DNA of 10,531 nt from contig JAHQXC010000046.1 of the NCBI GenBank assembly GCA_029856525.1, forward strand, positions 1-10,531, in the 5' to 3' direction. A program made the translations under genes and the position numbers. The notes below the pieces were generated by a model, which was not told the DNA's origin, did not search any database, and was given only the letters and a program-made list of their open reading frames with translations. The first letter of the stretch is position 1. The number at the start of each line of letters is the position of its first letter. This DNA is from Candidatus Odinarchaeia archaeon. GTDB taxonomy: Archaea > Asgardarchaeota > Odinarchaeia > Odinarchaeales > Odinarchaeaceae. Shown piece by piece: positions 6,143-10,531 of the stretch.

Positions 6143-6148
6143 AAAAAA
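6143..6148 (-). terminator. Candidate oligo-T (T6) terminator after the tRNA
   Basis: TTTTTT on the minus strand about 14 nt after the encoded CCA. Confidence 0.4.
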
Positions 6149-6193
6149 CGGTTACGGTTGAATGGTGGGAGCGATGGGATTCGGACCCATGAC

Positions 6194-6213
6194 CTCCGGT
6201 TTACATGTTTAAT
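6194..6213 (-). other. tRNA intron 3 (20 nt, variable loop, ~45/46)
   Basis: A 20-nt insert is needed to restore the perfect anticodon stem. BHB: CCGG(40-43):CCGG central helix, bulges AAA and AGG, closed by G39.U47 and two U-A pairs. The exact position is ambiguous from sequence alone because CCGGA is duplicated. Confidence 0.7.
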
Positions 6214-6221
6214 TTCCGGCT

Positions 6222-6256
6222 TTCTCAGAGGATTGCTCTTGTTACGAGCGCGGTCG
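6222..6256 (-). other. tRNA intron 2 (35 nt, canonical 37/38)
   Basis: Textbook BHB: C32-U33-U34-A35 pairs with intron UGAG, bulges UA|C and AA|A, outer helix is the anticodon stem. Internal GCUC/GAGC hairpin. Confidence 0.88.
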
Positions 6257-6273
6257 TATAAGGCCGGCGCTCT

Positions 6274-6288
6274 TTCTGGATGCAGTTT
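6274..6288 (-). other. tRNA intron 1 (15 nt, D-loop, 20a/21)
   Basis: CUGG:CCAG central helix, bulges UU|A and AA|A, closed by C16-G22 and an A-U pair. Confidence 0.8.
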
Positions 6289-6342
6289 AACCAGGCTGAG
6301 CTACGCTCCCACACCGTACCTACTTTAATGGTTATCTAAACA

Positions 6343-6353
6343 TTTTTTAAATA
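6343..6353 (-). promoter_or_regulatory. Candidate TATA box for the tRNA
   Basis: TATTTAAAAAA on the minus strand, about 33-43 nt upstream of tRNA position 1, which would allow a short 5' leader. Confidence 0.45.
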
Positions 6354-6363
6354 TTTAGGTATA

Positions 6364-9321
6364 TTAATCTGATCTTTTGAAGAGAACAGTCACTTTTTCA
6401 CCGCTTATATTAAATTCGCTGATCGTATAATTTTCAACATTATTTTCAAATTCACTTAACAGTTTTAGAGATGAGGCGTTCACTTTAGAGAGCAATAGGT
6501 CTTGGAGATCTTTAACAGATTTGCTTATAAGGTTGCTTTTAGTAATTATTTGAAGATTTATTTTTTCACTGACATGGTAATTATTCTGTTTCCGAGCGAA
6601 CTGTATCCTTCTTATAAGCTCTCTTAATATTCGCTCCTCGACAAGCTGCTCATCCTCGCTTAAATCTAAGAAGATCTTGTATTCCTTTAACTCTTTGAAT
6701 TTTAACCCTTGATCTACTGGTGTTTCAGTTGAAACCTCTACTTGCTTAACATTAGCCATGGATTCTATTATAGATGTTATCTCTTCACTAAGCTTAATAT
6801 TAGAGGATACTATAATGAGTTTTTTACAAGGCCATCTTAATTTCACATTATTCTCTTGCCTTAAGGCGAGAGTGGCTTCTATGATCTCTCTAGCATTCTC
6901 CATTTCAGCTTCAAGATTGCGATCAACCATTTTTTCATCTACATTAGGCCAGCTAGTAAGGTGAACGCTTTCAGGGGCTTCAGCGTTCACGCTTTTAACG
7001 AAGTATTTGTATATGTAATCTGTTATGAAGGGGGTTATCGGAGCCATAATTCTAAGCAGACGCTCTAACACATAATATAAAGTGGATAAAGCCGCGTGCT
7101 TATCTTCAAGGTTATCCTGAGATGTAATCCGGTCGCGGATGATTTTAATATATAAGCGGCTTAAATCCTCTGTGATAAATTGTTCTAGTAATCTAGGCGC
7201 TTGGGGTATGTTGTAATCTTTGAAAAGATCATTTAACTTTTTAATTAAACTGTTTAACTTAGATATAATCCATTTATCCTCTAATCTTAAATCTGATAAG
7301 TCGAGTTTATCTGAAGGCTTGAACCCCTCTATTTTCATAAAGGTTGAAGCGTAAACGTATATATTATAGAAGATGTTGAGAACTTTCTCAGTGTCCTCTA
7401 TTTCCTTCCAGCCGAATTTCATATCTAAACCGGGTTCTGAGCAGCCTACACTGTAGAATCTGAAAGTATCCACCCCATACTTCTCTGTAACCACCTCCGG
7501 TAGAATAATGTTTCCAAGAGATTTACTCATCGGCCTACCTTCAGGATCGTTTACGAAACCGTGCATGTAAACTGCTTTATACGGGCACTTGTGGAAGGCT
7601 GCGGCTCCGAGACACATCATCGTGTTAAACCAGCCTCTTATCTGATCTTTACCTTCAAGAACGAGATCTGCACTACTCCAATCCTCGAATACCGGTTTAC
7701 CTAGCATAACAGGGGTTGAAGCCCACACCACTGAGCCGCTGTCAACCCACACATCTAAAACATCTTGAACTCTTTTAAACCAGCCTCCGCATTTACAAAC
7801 CCATTTAAATTCATCCACCCACGGTCGATGTAAATCATCTACTTTACGATTAGTTTTATTCTCCAACTCTTTTATCGAACCTATAACCTCTATAGCCCCG
7901 CATTTATCACAAACCCATATTGGGAGAGGTGTGCCCCAAAATCTTTGCCTTGAAATACACCAGTCTTGAACACTCTCAAGCCATTTATCAAACCAAGGGT
8001 TACCAGCCCACTTAGGAGTCCAGTTAACTTTAGAGTTTAAAAGTCTCATCTCATCTGAAAGCTTAGAAACGTTGATAAACCATTGTTCAACTGCACGGTA
8101 GATTAAAGGAGTCTTACACCTCCAGCAGTGAGGGTATTCATGCTCCACTTCCCCTTCGTATAATAAGAGGTTTTTACGCTTCAAATCCTTTAAAACTTCA
8201 AGGCTGGCATCCTTCACATGCATTCCAGCATACTTACCAGCTTCAGCCGTCATCCTACCTGATTCATCCACAGGGGAGAAAGCGGGTAAACCGTATTTTA
8301 AACCTACGATGAAGTCTTCTGGGCCGTGTCCTGGAGCTGTGTGGACGCAACCTGTACCCTGCTCTAAAGTCACATACTCATCGCTTAAGATTACTTTATG
8401 AGCGTTACTATATTTTTCACCAAGCTCTTTTTGGAATGGAACCTCCTCTAATAGACAGTGAATATAGGATAATCCCTCCAGTTTCTCACCGGGAATCTCC
8501 TCTATGATTTCGAAGCTTTTCCCTAGAAGGCCTTGGATAATCGAAACCGCCATTCCTTTAGCTAGAATCCAGATTTCATCTTCAACTTTAGCTCTCACAT
8601 AAGTATAGAATGGGTTAACCATAACAGCTAGATTAGCTGGCAGAGTCCAGGGTGTGGTGGTCCAGATCAGTATATACTCGTTTCCTCCTCCGGTTAGTTT
8701 GAATTTAACGAAAATAGATTTATCAGAGACATTCTTATACTCGTATTCGTGTTTAGCTAACGCGGTTTCACAGCGAGGACAGAAAGCTAAAGGTCTTAAT
8801 CCTTTATACAATAGTTTGTTTTCATATATTTTTTTAAGCCCGAACCAGACGCCTTCAATATAATCGTTTGTAAGCGTCATGTAAGGTTTACTCCAGTTCA
8901 TCGCTACGCCGAGTTTTTTAAACTGTTCTGTCATTTTACTCAGATTTTTTAAAGCGAATTCACGGCATTTTAAAGTAAATTCCGCTATTCCACCGGTTTC
9001 AATACTCTTTTTATCTTTAATTTTTAATTCTCTCTCAACTTTAACTTCAATAGGTAAACCGTGCATGTCAAAACCTGGTGTGTCTATTACTCTATGCCCT
9101 GTCATCCGTTTATATCTTAAAATAACATCCTTCAATATTTTATTCCAAGCGGTTCCTAAGTGAATGACGCCTGTGGTATATGGAGGGCCGTCTATAAAAA
9201 GGAATTCAGGGCGATTCTCTACTAGAGCAGTCATTTTCTCATATATTTTGCTAGCCTCCCAGAAATCGAATACCTCCTGTTCAGCTGATTTTCTAGAATA
9301 TACTTTCGGAAGCTCCTCCAT
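6364..9321 (-). CDS. ileS: Isoleucyl-tRNA synthetase (archaeal type)
   Basis: Motifs: DGPPYTTGVIHLGTAWNKILKD (HIGH variant), GFDMHGLPIE, editing domain WTTTPWTLPAN and GTGCVHTAPGHGPED, DWCISRQRFWG, EGKDQIRGWF, and PMSKSLGN (KMSKS variant). GGTGA SD upstream. Confidence 0.97.
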   Translation of the reverse strand: MEELPKVYSRKSAEQEVFDFWEASKIYEKMTALVENRPEFLFIDGPPYTTGVIHLGTAWNKILKDVILRYKRMTGHRVIDTPGFDMHGLPIEVKVERELKIKDKKSIETGGIAEFTLKCREFALKNLSKMTEQFKKLGVAMNWSKPYMTLTNDYIEGVWFGLKKIYENKLLYKGLRPLAFCPRCETALAKHEYEYKNVSDKSIFVKFKLTGGGNEYILIWTTTPWTLPANLAVMVNPFYTYVRAKVEDEIWILAKGMAVSIIQGLLGKSFEIIEEIPGEKLEGLSYIHCLLEEVPFQKELGEKYSNAHKVILSDEYVTLEQGTGCVHTAPGHGPEDFIVGLKYGLPAFSPVDESGRMTAEAGKYAGMHVKDASLEVLKDLKRKNLLLYEGEVEHEYPHCWRCKTPLIYRAVEQWFINVSKLSDEMRLLNSKVNWTPKWAGNPWFDKWLESVQDWCISRQRFWGTPLPIWVCDKCGAIEVIGSIKELENKTNRKVDDLHRPWVDEFKWVCKCGGWFKRVQDVLDVWVDSGSVVWASTPVMLGKPVFEDWSSADLVLEGKDQIRGWFNTMMCLGAAAFHKCPYKAVYMHGFVNDPEGRPMSKSLGNIILPEVVTEKYGVDTFRFYSVGCSEPGLDMKFGWKEIEDTEKVLNIFYNIYVYASTFMKIEGFKPSDKLDLSDLRLEDKWIISKLNSLIKKLNDLFKDYNIPQAPRLLEQFITEDLSRLYIKIIRDRITSQDNLEDKHAALSTLYYVLERLLRIMAPITPFITDYIYKYFVKSVNAEAPESVHLTSWPNVDEKMVDRNLEAEMENAREIIEATLALRQENNVKLRWPCKKLIIVSSNIKLSEEITSIIESMANVKQVEVSTETPVDQGLKFKELKEYKIFLDLSEDEQLVEERILRELIRRIQFARKQNNYHVSEKINLQIITKSNLISKSVKDLQDLLLSKVNASSLKLLSEFENNVENYTISEFNISGEKVTVLFKRSD

Positions 9322-9474: not shown

Positions 9475-10531
9475 ATGCGGCGCATCATCCTTATAGCATT
9501 TATATTATTATCTAGTTTGATTGTAAGCCCAAATATTATCTCAGCCTCCCAGCAGCCTGCAATAATCTCAGAGATATCTGAAGCGAACATTCAATGGATT
9601 TTAAATAATCTAACAAGTTTCCAAACTAGACGCGCAGGAACTGTTGAATGCAATATGAGCGCTGAATACATCTACAATTATTTGAAGGCGATTAATATCA
9701 GCGTAGACTATGAGTTTTTTAACACTCCTAGTGGAGTGTTAGCCAATGTAGTTGCTGATATAACAGGTTCCAGCTTGAAAGAGAATTATGTGATTATAGG
9801 AGCTCACTATGATTCTATAAGTAGCAGTGGAAACGCTCCTGGAGCTGTTGACAACGCGGCAGCTGTAGCCGTATTAATGGAGTTAGCTAGAGTGTTATCT
9901 AATCACAGCCTATCTAGAAGCGTTAAAATTCTATTTTTCAGCGGAGAGGAGATCGGTAGATACGGGTCTTTAAACTGGGTGAGTAAAAATTACGAGATAA
10001 GATGGAATCTGACCGCTACACTCATACTTGACATGGTCGCTTACGGTAACAGTCTAGTTATAGATTATAATAGTGTCTCTAAACCTTTAGCTGACTACAT
10101 ATTCGAGAAAACCAGTTTTAAAAACTATTTGAGCGTTGAAGAGAATAATTATTTAAGCGATCATCAAAGCTTCTGGTCTGCGAATATACCAGCAGTATTA
10201 ATACACCAGAATAACCCGTTAGAGTATCCTTACTATCACACATCTGAGGATACTGTGGATAAAGTGAACTTTAAACTATTAGCTTTAACAGCCTCATTAA
10301 CTCTGGAAGCTGTCTACTTTCTAGCTACAGACCCAAGCTTAGAGAACCTATATTATAAAGCGAATCCTATTTATCTTATTATACTTATAGTTTTACCTAT
10401 AGTCTTTTTAACATGTTTAGGGTTAGTAGTGAGCTACTCCTCGACTAAAGTCGGGAGCTTCCAGCGTTCGTCTGAGGCTTTACGCCTTCAGTTACACGTG
10501 CTGGTTCGCGGGGCTCACAGCTCCGCCATCC
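9475..10531 (+). CDS. M28-family zinc aminopeptidase with signal peptide and C-terminal TM anchor; no stop in the window, runs into an IS end
   Basis: Manually translated from ATG 9475: MRRIILIAFILLSSLIVSPNIISA... Motifs GAHYDS, GAVDNAAAV, FSGEEIG, LDMV, SDH and YHTSED. TM helix IYLIILIVLPIVFLTCLGLV ends at 10428. Five N-X-S/T sequons. Confidence 0.9.
   Translation, partial: MRRIILIAFILLSSLIVSPNIISASQQPAIISEISEANIQWILNNLTSFQTRRAGTVECNMSAEYIYNYLKAINISVDYEFFNTPSGVLANVVADITGSSLKENYVIIGAHYDSISSSGNAPGAVDNAAAVAVLMELARVLSNHSLSRSVKILFFSGEEIGRYGSLNWVSKNYEIRWNLTATLILDMVAYGNSLVIDYNSVSKPLADYIFEKTSFKNYLSVEENNYLSDHQSFWSANIPAVLIHQNNPLEYPYYHTSEDTVDKVNFKLLALTASLTLEAVYFLATDPSLENLYYKANPIYLIILIVLPIVFLTCLGLVVSYSSTKVGSFQRSSEALRLQLHVLVRGAHSSAI
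10429..10531 (-). mobile_element. Right end / omegaRNA 3' region of an IS200/IS605- (or IS607-) family tnpB element; the rest lies beyond the window
   Basis: The minus strand reads ...CTGAAGGC-GTAAA-GCCTCAG ACGAACGCT GGAAG CTCCCGAC-TTTA-GTCGAGGAG TAGCTCAC. This shows a subterminal hairpin, GAAG at its foot, a TCAC end, and an upstream GTGAGC (10513-18) complementary to the terminal GCTCAC. GC content jumps abruptly relative to the host gene. Confidence 0.75.

Follow-up and report, generated by a model that had tools for sequence, protein, structure and literature searches.

Introns interrupt 92–95% of the tRNA genes in the three complete Asgard genomes described by Valentin-Alvarado et al. 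2024 (PMC11291895); they often lie at non-canonical sites, and over half of the genes contain several of them. The table of that paper has columns for four introns and includes an isoleucine gene with anticodon TAT, which has two predicted introns and is marked "possible pseudo". Kaneta et al. 2018 (PMC5829648) map the occurrence of tRNAs with multiple introns within the Asgard group and state that the tRNA sets of some Asgard genomes are incomplete and need manual curation. For Thermoproteales and Crenarchaeota, Sugahara 2008, as cited in PMC11291895, and Hirata 2011 (PMC3241643) describe up to three introns per tRNA gene, with bulge–helix–bulge (BHB) or relaxed motifs and with the D-loop among the sites. 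Here, we describe a tRNA-Ile(UAU) gene with introns in its D-loop, anticodon loop and variable loop, located in a 10,531-nt contig (JAHQXC010000046.1, referred to in its whole length as the window) of an archaeon of the class Odinarchaeia (assembly GCA_029856525.1). On the comparative evidence set out below, we consider it highly likely that this is a functional gene whose three introns are cut by an (αβ)2 splicing endonuclease, EndA, and whose exons are joined by RtcB. The original prediction, made from the letters of the window, regarded triple-intron tRNAs as rare and known mainly from Thermoproteales; that view does not stand, since multi-intron tRNAs have been published as the rule in two other Asgard classes (PMC11291895).

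The locus at 6163–6310 on the minus strand is a real isoleucine tRNA gene with anticodon UAU, reading AUA, and with three introns. Both ends can be read directly in the sequence. The 5′ end lies at 6310 and the encoded CCA at 6165–6163 (minus strand). The gene starts with GGGAGCG-UA-GCUC, the acceptor strand and the beginning of the D region, and its 3′ portion is AUGGG-UCCGAAU-CCCAU-CGCUCCC-A-CCA, which comprises a T-arm, an acceptor 3′ strand (CGCUCCC) complementary to the gene start and the discriminator A73. The tRNA family RF00005 matches the locus at 6166–6310(-) over model positions 1–71, with 43.8 bits and E 5.7e-8 (gathering score 29), when permissive filters are applied to a 701-nt slice; the alignment bridges 22 additional bases in the D-loop and 56 following the anticodon. 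When the three introns are removed in silico, ARAGORN recognizes the resulting 78-nt sequence as tRNA-Ile(tat), both in this genome (G000; 1.32 Mb in 127 contigs, of which the window is contig C78) and in three congeners (G001–G003). The spliced molecule folds into a complete cloverleaf without mismatches in its stems; its anticodon loop measures 7 nt and contains U33 and the anticodon UAU, the latter encoded in exon 2 at 6260–6258. The D-loop AGCCUGGUUA, the G53–C61 pair, A73 and CCA are all normal. The G+C content is 61.5% in the 78 nt of joined exons vs 35–54% in the introns.

For each oversized loop, the intron boundaries were sought as the deletion that brings the loop back to its usual length and agrees best with the archaeal splice motif, in which the cuts fall two bases into 3-nt bulges and the bulges are a 4-bp helix apart. 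The cut position is set by the canonical 37/38 geometry together with the pairing of position 32 with the third-last intron base. The best solution is unique for each of the three introns, and all three have 4/4 central pairs (Table 1). Intron 2 displays the full hBHBh′ architecture: its outer helix is the 5-bp anticodon stem, its inner helix has 2 bp, and the central helix includes a U34·G pair. In intron 1, the 3′ bulge AAA lies beside the D-stem and the 5′ site falls within an 11-nt loop, with flanking helices of 1 bp (h) and 1 bp (h′). In intron 3, the 3′ strand of the anticodon stem, CCGG, pairs with an intronic CCGG; here h has 1 bp and h′, the inner helix UU/AA, has 2 bp. Introns 1 and 3 thus have relaxed, bulge–helix–loop-like motifs, and only intron 2 has a strict hBHBh′. 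Relaxed motifs of this kind are cut by broad-specificity EndA enzymes. The original prediction had placed a triple-intron gene at exactly these coordinates, to which the minus strand can now be added, and its count of intronic nucleotides, 70 of 148 (15+35+20), is reproduced by the boundary search. Its description of every insert as a 4-bp helix flanked by 3-nt bulges also fits all three introns, but a full BHB is found only in intron 2.

Table 1. Features of the tRNA-Ile(UAU) locus and its surroundings. Positions are those of the window; precursor index 1 corresponds to window position 6310; ↓ marks the cut within a bulge.
Feature	Window position	Strand	Precursor index	Description
Whole tRNA-Ile(UAU) gene	6163–6310	minus		148-nt precursor including encoded CCA; RF00005, and ARAGORN after in-silico splicing
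Exon 1, 22 nt	6289–6310	minus		Acceptor GGGAGCG, U8 A9, D-stem GCUC, D-loop AGCCUGGUU; invariant in 4 congeneric genomes
Intron 1, 15 nt, D-loop 20a/21	6274–6288	minus	23–37	Helix CUGG/CCAG; bulges UU↓A, AA↓A
Exon 2, 17 nt	6257–6273	minus		A21, D-stem 3′ strand, G26, CCGGC, loop CUUAUA; invariant in 4 genomes
Intron 2, 35 nt, canonical 37/38	6222–6256	minus	55–89	Helix CUUA/UGAG; bulges UA↓C, AA↓A
Exon 3, 8-nt micro-exon	6214–6221	minus		AGCCGGAA: position 38, anticodon-stem 3′ strand, 44–45
Intron 3, 20 nt, variable loop 45/46	6194–6213	minus	98–117	Helix CCGG/CCGG; bulges AA↓A, AG↓G
Exon 4, 31 nt	6163–6193	minus		G46 U47 C48, T-arm AUGGG-UCCGAAU-CCCAU, acceptor 3′ strand, A73, CCA; invariant in 4 genomes
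A/T-rich TATA-like box	6343–6351	minus		TTTAAAAAA; ~37 nt upstream of mature 5′ end; block conserved in congeners
Oligo-T run	6143–6148	minus		15 nt downstream of CCA
ileS	6364–9321	minus		Isoleucyl-tRNA synthetase; TIGR00392, 939 bits vs cut-off 621

When the inserts are shuffled, a motif as good as the observed one arises with a frequency of 0.0006 for intron 2, 0.0006 for intron 3 and 0.11 for intron 1. Since the motif of intron 1 is non-significant by itself, it is the comparative data that carry this intron. In folding calculations, the cloverleaf combined with motifs 1 and 2 has -44.2 kcal/mol and the conformer with motif 3 has -41.8 kcal/mol, the unconstrained minimum being -45.9 kcal/mol. 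The helix of motif 3 and the anticodon stem are mutually exclusive, as both use the CCGG at positions 40–43. An unsupervised search, in which all BHB candidates were combined up to four at a time and judged by ARAGORN, was not used for the inventory of tRNA genes because it is too permissive, accepting 12 variants at this locus and hundreds elsewhere. Its top pick for the D-loop, a 12-nt intron at index 14–25, was rejected, as it would remove G18–G19.

The gene has orthologs in the three congeners, with 90–93% identity. In the alignment of the four genomes, 1/78 exon columns are variable vs 20/72 intron columns (p 1e-6), and within the introns the bases of the splice helices, central or inner, vary in 0/22 columns vs 20/50 of the remaining ones (p 1.5e-4). 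Intron 1, which is 17 nt long in G003, varies in 8 of its 17 columns, and intron 2 in 9 of 35, the helix bases being invariant in both; intron 3 has 19 nt in G001 and G002 and 20 nt otherwise. Among the same four species, IleRS is 73–82% identical and the neighbouring aspartate kinase 85–89%. Since these proteins have diverged, the frozen state of the exons does not come from a lack of divergence. The pattern of variation fits what would be expected of inserts that are discarded and that first must fold into a splice motif.

The comparison extends beyond the genus. The orthologs in G005, from another family of the same order, and in G037, from another Asgard family, are tRNA-Ile(UAU) genes in which these three loops likewise contain inserts. 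Both have the identical D-loop cut site and a full 37/38 motif. The variable-loop intron lies at 45/46 in G005, where it has a 9-bp inner helix, and at 44/45 in G037, with 4/4 central pairs. A search for related contigs based on IleRS retrieved distant relatives only, at ≤46% identity, and found no close orthologs.

A further relative with a closed 2.8-Mb genome, G017, has a tRNA-Ile(UAU) gene (L118, G017:C1 ~36,850–37,090) with at least four inserts, one of them within the anticodon stem, between CCGG and C; the acceptor stem GGGAGCG/CGCUCCC is common to that gene and the one described here. Supplementary Data 4 of PMC11291895 probably lists the G017 gene as its Ile TAT entry with two introns and the mark "possible pseudo". 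A tRNA-Arg(UCU) gene from another family of the phylum (L116, G012:C56 ~1503–1610) likewise contains an intron at this D-loop site, and the 3′ part of that intron, UGCAUCCAGAAA, is identical to the 3′ part of intron 1. The shared UGCAUCCAGAAA could reflect shared descent, transfer of an intron among tRNA genes or a constraint imposed by pairing in the D-loop.

A metagenome scan with a 16-mer of the anticodon arm found no additional Odinarchaeia copies; it gave mostly chance matches in bacterial genes, intron-less tRNAs and an archaeal tRNA-Ile(UAU) of 90 nt. The latter, which has the 37/38 intron only, is common in metagenome contigs (L135, L139, L140 and ~15 further loci). Its anticodon arm is the same as here, and its intron has a similar end, ...CCU(A/G)AGAAA. 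Because the 37/38 intron occurs alone in these 90-nt genes, it seems to predate the introns of the D-loop and variable loop. The residue that faces the first anticodon position differs among these genes: U34 lies opposite the intronic G at 6226 (index 85), as a U·G wobble, in the genus and in G037, and opposite A in G005 and in most metagenomic copies of the 90-nt single-intron tRNA-Ile(UAU). The intronic G at index 85 would pair perfectly with C34.

The original prediction also anticipated that standard scans would probably miss or mis-call the gene, which holds for ARAGORN and Rfam. ARAGORN, with or without its intron mode, does not find tRNA-Ile(UAU) in the raw locus or window; Rfam returns nothing for the window when gathering thresholds are applied; and a whole-genome search with RF00005 lists 28 tRNAs, tRNA-Ile(UAU) not being among them. 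Run on the whole genome, ARAGORN -i mis-calls many tRNA genes, for example as "tRNA-Stop" or with a "1460-nt intron". A rough and partial inventory was obtained with a loop-anchored parser, which gives 20 credible tRNA genes, but which also takes the extra arms of class II tRNAs for introns and produces false positives of great length. In this rough parse, tRNA-Ile(UAU) is the only credible three-intron gene; at least nine credible genes have two introns, at 37/38 and in the variable loop (Glu x2, Gln x2, Lys, Leu, Pro, Thr and Trp), and at least 12 tRNA genes besides tRNA-Ile(UAU), of many specificities, have a variable-loop insert with a BHB-like motif. Routine tRNA finders perform badly on Asgard genomes, as this gene shows, and automatic annotations would seem to lack an AUA decoder because an apparently essential tRNA is missed by ARAGORN and by Rfam with default settings.

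Several observations made in the course of the inventory are worth recording. Variable-loop introns whose central helix is formed on the 3′ strand of the anticodon stem recur on many contigs, in 12 or more tRNA genes of the genome, usually alongside a 37/38 intron (for example, C123:116-227, C99:1425-1537 and C13:4065-4187 of G000). A targeted search for CAU anticodons found one initiator-like gene, with several inserts and incompletely parsed. This tRNA-Met, at G000:C11 ~9853–9975(+), begins AGCGGGG-UG-GGGU..., has the anticodon arm CGGGG-CUCAUA...CCCCG and is interrupted in the D and variable regions as well as at 37/38; its 3′ end is ill-defined, U72 and CCA both being absent from their expected places. 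It is missed by ARAGORN, Rfam and the loop-anchored parser. As for position 55, C55 is found in 1/20 credibly parsed tRNA genes of the genome, namely tRNA-Ile(UAU) only, and is fixed in 4/4 congeners, and U55 is present in the tRNA-Ile(UAU) orthologs of G005, G037 and G017.

A number of points weigh against a functional AUA-reading gene with three introns at the boundaries of Table 1, and they should be set out together. A look-up of sequencing runs for the locus listed none of RNA. The flanking helices measure only 1–2 bp in both non-canonical motifs, and the D-loop motif, taken alone, is not above chance (0.11). No covariation was found, every helix pair being invariant among the four genomes; the support is therefore one of conservation and not of compensatory change. 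The variable-loop insert of G005 has just 2/4 central pairs. The T-loop UCCGAAU, at 6179–6185(-), has C55 instead of the near-universal U55. The tRNA inventory is partial, and a CAU-type tRNA-Ile2 could exist in the genome. Finally, the sole variable exon column, position 45 (A to U in G002), lies beside the boundary of intron 3 and leaves that boundary in some doubt.

This last point leads to the alternative that survives best, in which the three introns are spliced as proposed but the variable-loop boundaries are off by 1–2 bases, at 43/44 or 44/45, giving the loop AGGUC and not AAGUC. A cut at index 96–115 or 97–116 would leave the exons invariant, and for the G037 ortholog the best cut lies at 44/45; yet the BHB solution of G037 likewise produces AAGUC, and in the gene described here only index 98–117 places both cuts two bases into 3-nt bulges with 4/4 pairs, the alternatives reaching 2/4. 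Moreover, the BHB-derived products of G000, G002 and G005 differ at position 45, with A, U or G, as would a variable tRNA position. We regard a displaced boundary as improbable.

A second alternative is that splicing takes out no more than the 37/38 intron, or one further intron besides, and that the mature tRNA retains the variable-loop and/or D-loop insert as an expansion, for example a long extra arm. Rfam does align the gene with plain insertions, the D-loop BHB is non-significant alone, and in G005 the 9-bp hairpin of the variable region, with its poor central helix, resembles a class II extra arm. On the other side, the inserts evolve rapidly, in their length as well as their sequence, next to a frozen remainder of the gene, and the bases that stay invariant in them are exactly those of the splice helices. 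Furthermore, the 20-nt insert is 35% G+C and without a stable stem, a 25-nt D-loop would part G18–G19 from A21 and the D-stem, and the other tRNA genes with a BHB-like variable-loop insert in the rough parse number at least 12. We therefore give retention a slimmer chance still than a displaced boundary, and the removal of all three introns is adopted in what follows.

Among the surroundings of the gene (Table 1), the box TTTAAAAAA is probably the archaeal promoter of the tRNA gene, and the oligo-T run is probably its transcription terminator; downstream of CCA, a run of 5 T is kept in 4/4 genomes (6 T in 3/4). Upstream, on the same strand, the end of ileS is separated from tRNA-Ile(UAU) by 53 nt. 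The adjacency of the two genes is kept in G001–G003, in G005, whose IleRS is 47% identical, and in G037, at 42%. Thus, the linkage between a synthetase and its cognate tRNA has been maintained across three Asgard families. Charging of the tRNA with isoleucine by IleRS is predicted, the circumstance that favours it being the position of ileS just upstream.

In the seven ORFs of the window, isoleucine is most often encoded by AUA (139/283 codons), and the tRNA described here is probably the AUA decoder of this Odinarchaeum-type archaeon. The enzyme that would be expected if AUA were read by a modified CAU anticodon, TiaS, gave no match to its domain PF08489 in G000–G003 (a closed genome included), G005 or G017; the same model matched 4/4 archaeal controls. 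Of 121 sampled genomes of the phylum, 70 have TiaS, and its absence runs by family (0/26, 0/7, 0/3, 0/3, 0/2, 0/2 and 0/1). A 16-mer that runs from the D-stem 3′ strand through the anticodon stem to CUUAUA is confined to six genomes, all from families without a TiaS match. This suggests, but does not prove, that the Asgard lineages without a TiaS match use a UAU tRNA for AUA, in the manner of eukaryotes. Nanoarchaeum and Korarchaeum, which are not known to have TiaS, use tRNA-Ile(UAU). A literature search found no paper mentioning TiaS together with Asgard.

That the locus is a decaying or silent pseudogene, as might be supposed from its escaping standard scanners, from the unusual C55 and from the "possible pseudo" mark on the Atabeyarchaeia Ile TAT gene (Supplementary Data 4, PMC11291895), is the least credible of the alternatives, given that the four species share 77/78 exon positions in spite of a divergence of 11–27% in the neighbouring proteins, that all stems are perfect, that promoter-like and terminator-like flanks are conserved, that linkage to ileS is maintained across three families, and that AUA is the most used isoleucine codon of the window in a genome where no TiaS gene was found.

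If the three introns are removed, what enzymes would be responsible? The original prediction supposed that the lineage has an EndA of relaxed specificity and proposed that the subunit type be classified; what the genome encodes agrees well with that supposition. There are two EndA genes (two PF01974 matches). The product of the first, EndA α (G000:C56, L029:1429–1995), has 188 aa and matches the catalytic subunit of Aeropyrum pernix, 3P1Z_B (E 6e-44), to which it aligns ungapped across the Crenarchaea-specific loop (L1). In this loop, GFFGKPVGIRKPKVPEFDRP, a K aligns with K44 of A. pernix and another K with R46. The catalytic Tyr, His and Lys are present, in ..FAVYEHGPGIDHSPF.. and ..VRKKF... 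The product of the second gene, EndA β (G000:C61, L030:1474–2037), has 187 aa and Ala at the catalytic His of M. jannaschii, and looks like a structural subunit. According to Hirata 2011 (PMC3241643), the Crenarchaea-specific loop and its K44 enable cutting of D-loop and relaxed motifs. Kaneta et al. 2018 (PMC5829648) assign an (αβ)2 EndA with the L1 loop to Asgard archaea, Odinarchaeota LCB_4 included. The genome is thus supported as encoding a predicted (αβ)2 EndA of the broad-specificity crenarchaeal/Asgard type. For the joining step, an RtcB ligase gene fragment is present at G000:C95:1-1311, on the minus strand (L132), its ORF running off the contig end. The RtcB gene is split, after ~50 RtcB-domain residues, by an intein with a LAGLIDADG homing-endonuclease domain.

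We propose the following route. Transcription would start from the gene's own A/T-rich promoter, just past ileS, and stop at the oligo-T run. In the 148-nt precursor, the (αβ)2 EndA would cut two bases into the 3-nt bulges that lie beside the 4-bp helices of the three introns, the loop and lysine of its catalytic subunit conferring broad specificity, as in the crenarchaeal enzymes. RtcB would then ligate exons of 22, 17, 8 and 31 nt into a 78-nt tRNA already ending in CCA. Since motif 3 takes up positions 40–43 of the anticodon stem, which serves motif 2 as its outer helix, motifs 2 and 3 cannot coexist; therefore, the precursor must refold between cuts, and splicing would proceed in steps. 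Stepwise splicing with refolding has already been described for multi-intron crenarchaeal tRNAs. If the model is right, we infer that the 8-nt exon would never be free on both sides simultaneously. Cleavage at these exact bonds, ligation, transcription and the order of splicing are deduced here from sequence. With one strict and two relaxed motifs, an 8-nt micro-exon and two motifs that are mutually exclusive, the 148-nt gene would make a compact test substrate for Asgard EndA.

It is tempting to go one step further. The 37/38 intron pairs with U33–A35, U34 facing the intronic G. Conceivably, several Asgard lineages, this genus among them, have lost or never had TiaS and read AUA in the eukaryotic style, with a UAU tRNA whose gene is tethered to ileS and whose intron, like that of eukaryotic tRNA-Ile(UAU), is needed for modification of the anticodon. 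We put this forward by analogy and think it unlikely as a whole, if less so than any of the alternatives weighed above. If true, a eukaryote-type mode of decoding, with an intron-dependent modification step, would date back to the archaeal relatives of eukaryotes, and a modification set through the intron (e.g., pseudouridines) would keep AUG from being misread. The origin of eukaryotic AUA reading is thereby touched on: several Asgard families gave no TiaS match, and three of them have a UAU tRNA linked to ileS.

How, then, does the gene compare with those already described? Like eukaryotic tRNA-Ile(UAU), it uses UAU for AUA rather than a modified CAU and has a 37/38 intron that pairs with the anticodon; the eukaryotic gene has one intron, the present one three. 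With the crenarchaeal multi-intron tRNAs it shares non-canonical motifs that form at the expense of the cloverleaf and, by prediction, a heterotetrameric EndA with broad specificity via a loop lysine, although those tRNAs belong to a different phylum. The closest parallel is provided by the multi-intron tRNA genes of Atabeyarchaeia and Freyarchaeia (PMC11291895), which are the same kind of gene in the same phylum; indeed, the Atabeyarchaeia-like orthologs, G037 and G017, have inserts in the same three loops. What differs here is the class, Odinarchaeia, a genome of 1.3 Mb and shorter introns, of 15, 35 and 20 nt. In comparison with the published Ile TAT entry, with its two predicted introns, the present gene has three BHB motifs, whose predicted bonds and conservation were derived by hand. 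The tRNA-Ile(UAU) gene thus adds one more well-supported case to a pattern on record for Asgard archaea.

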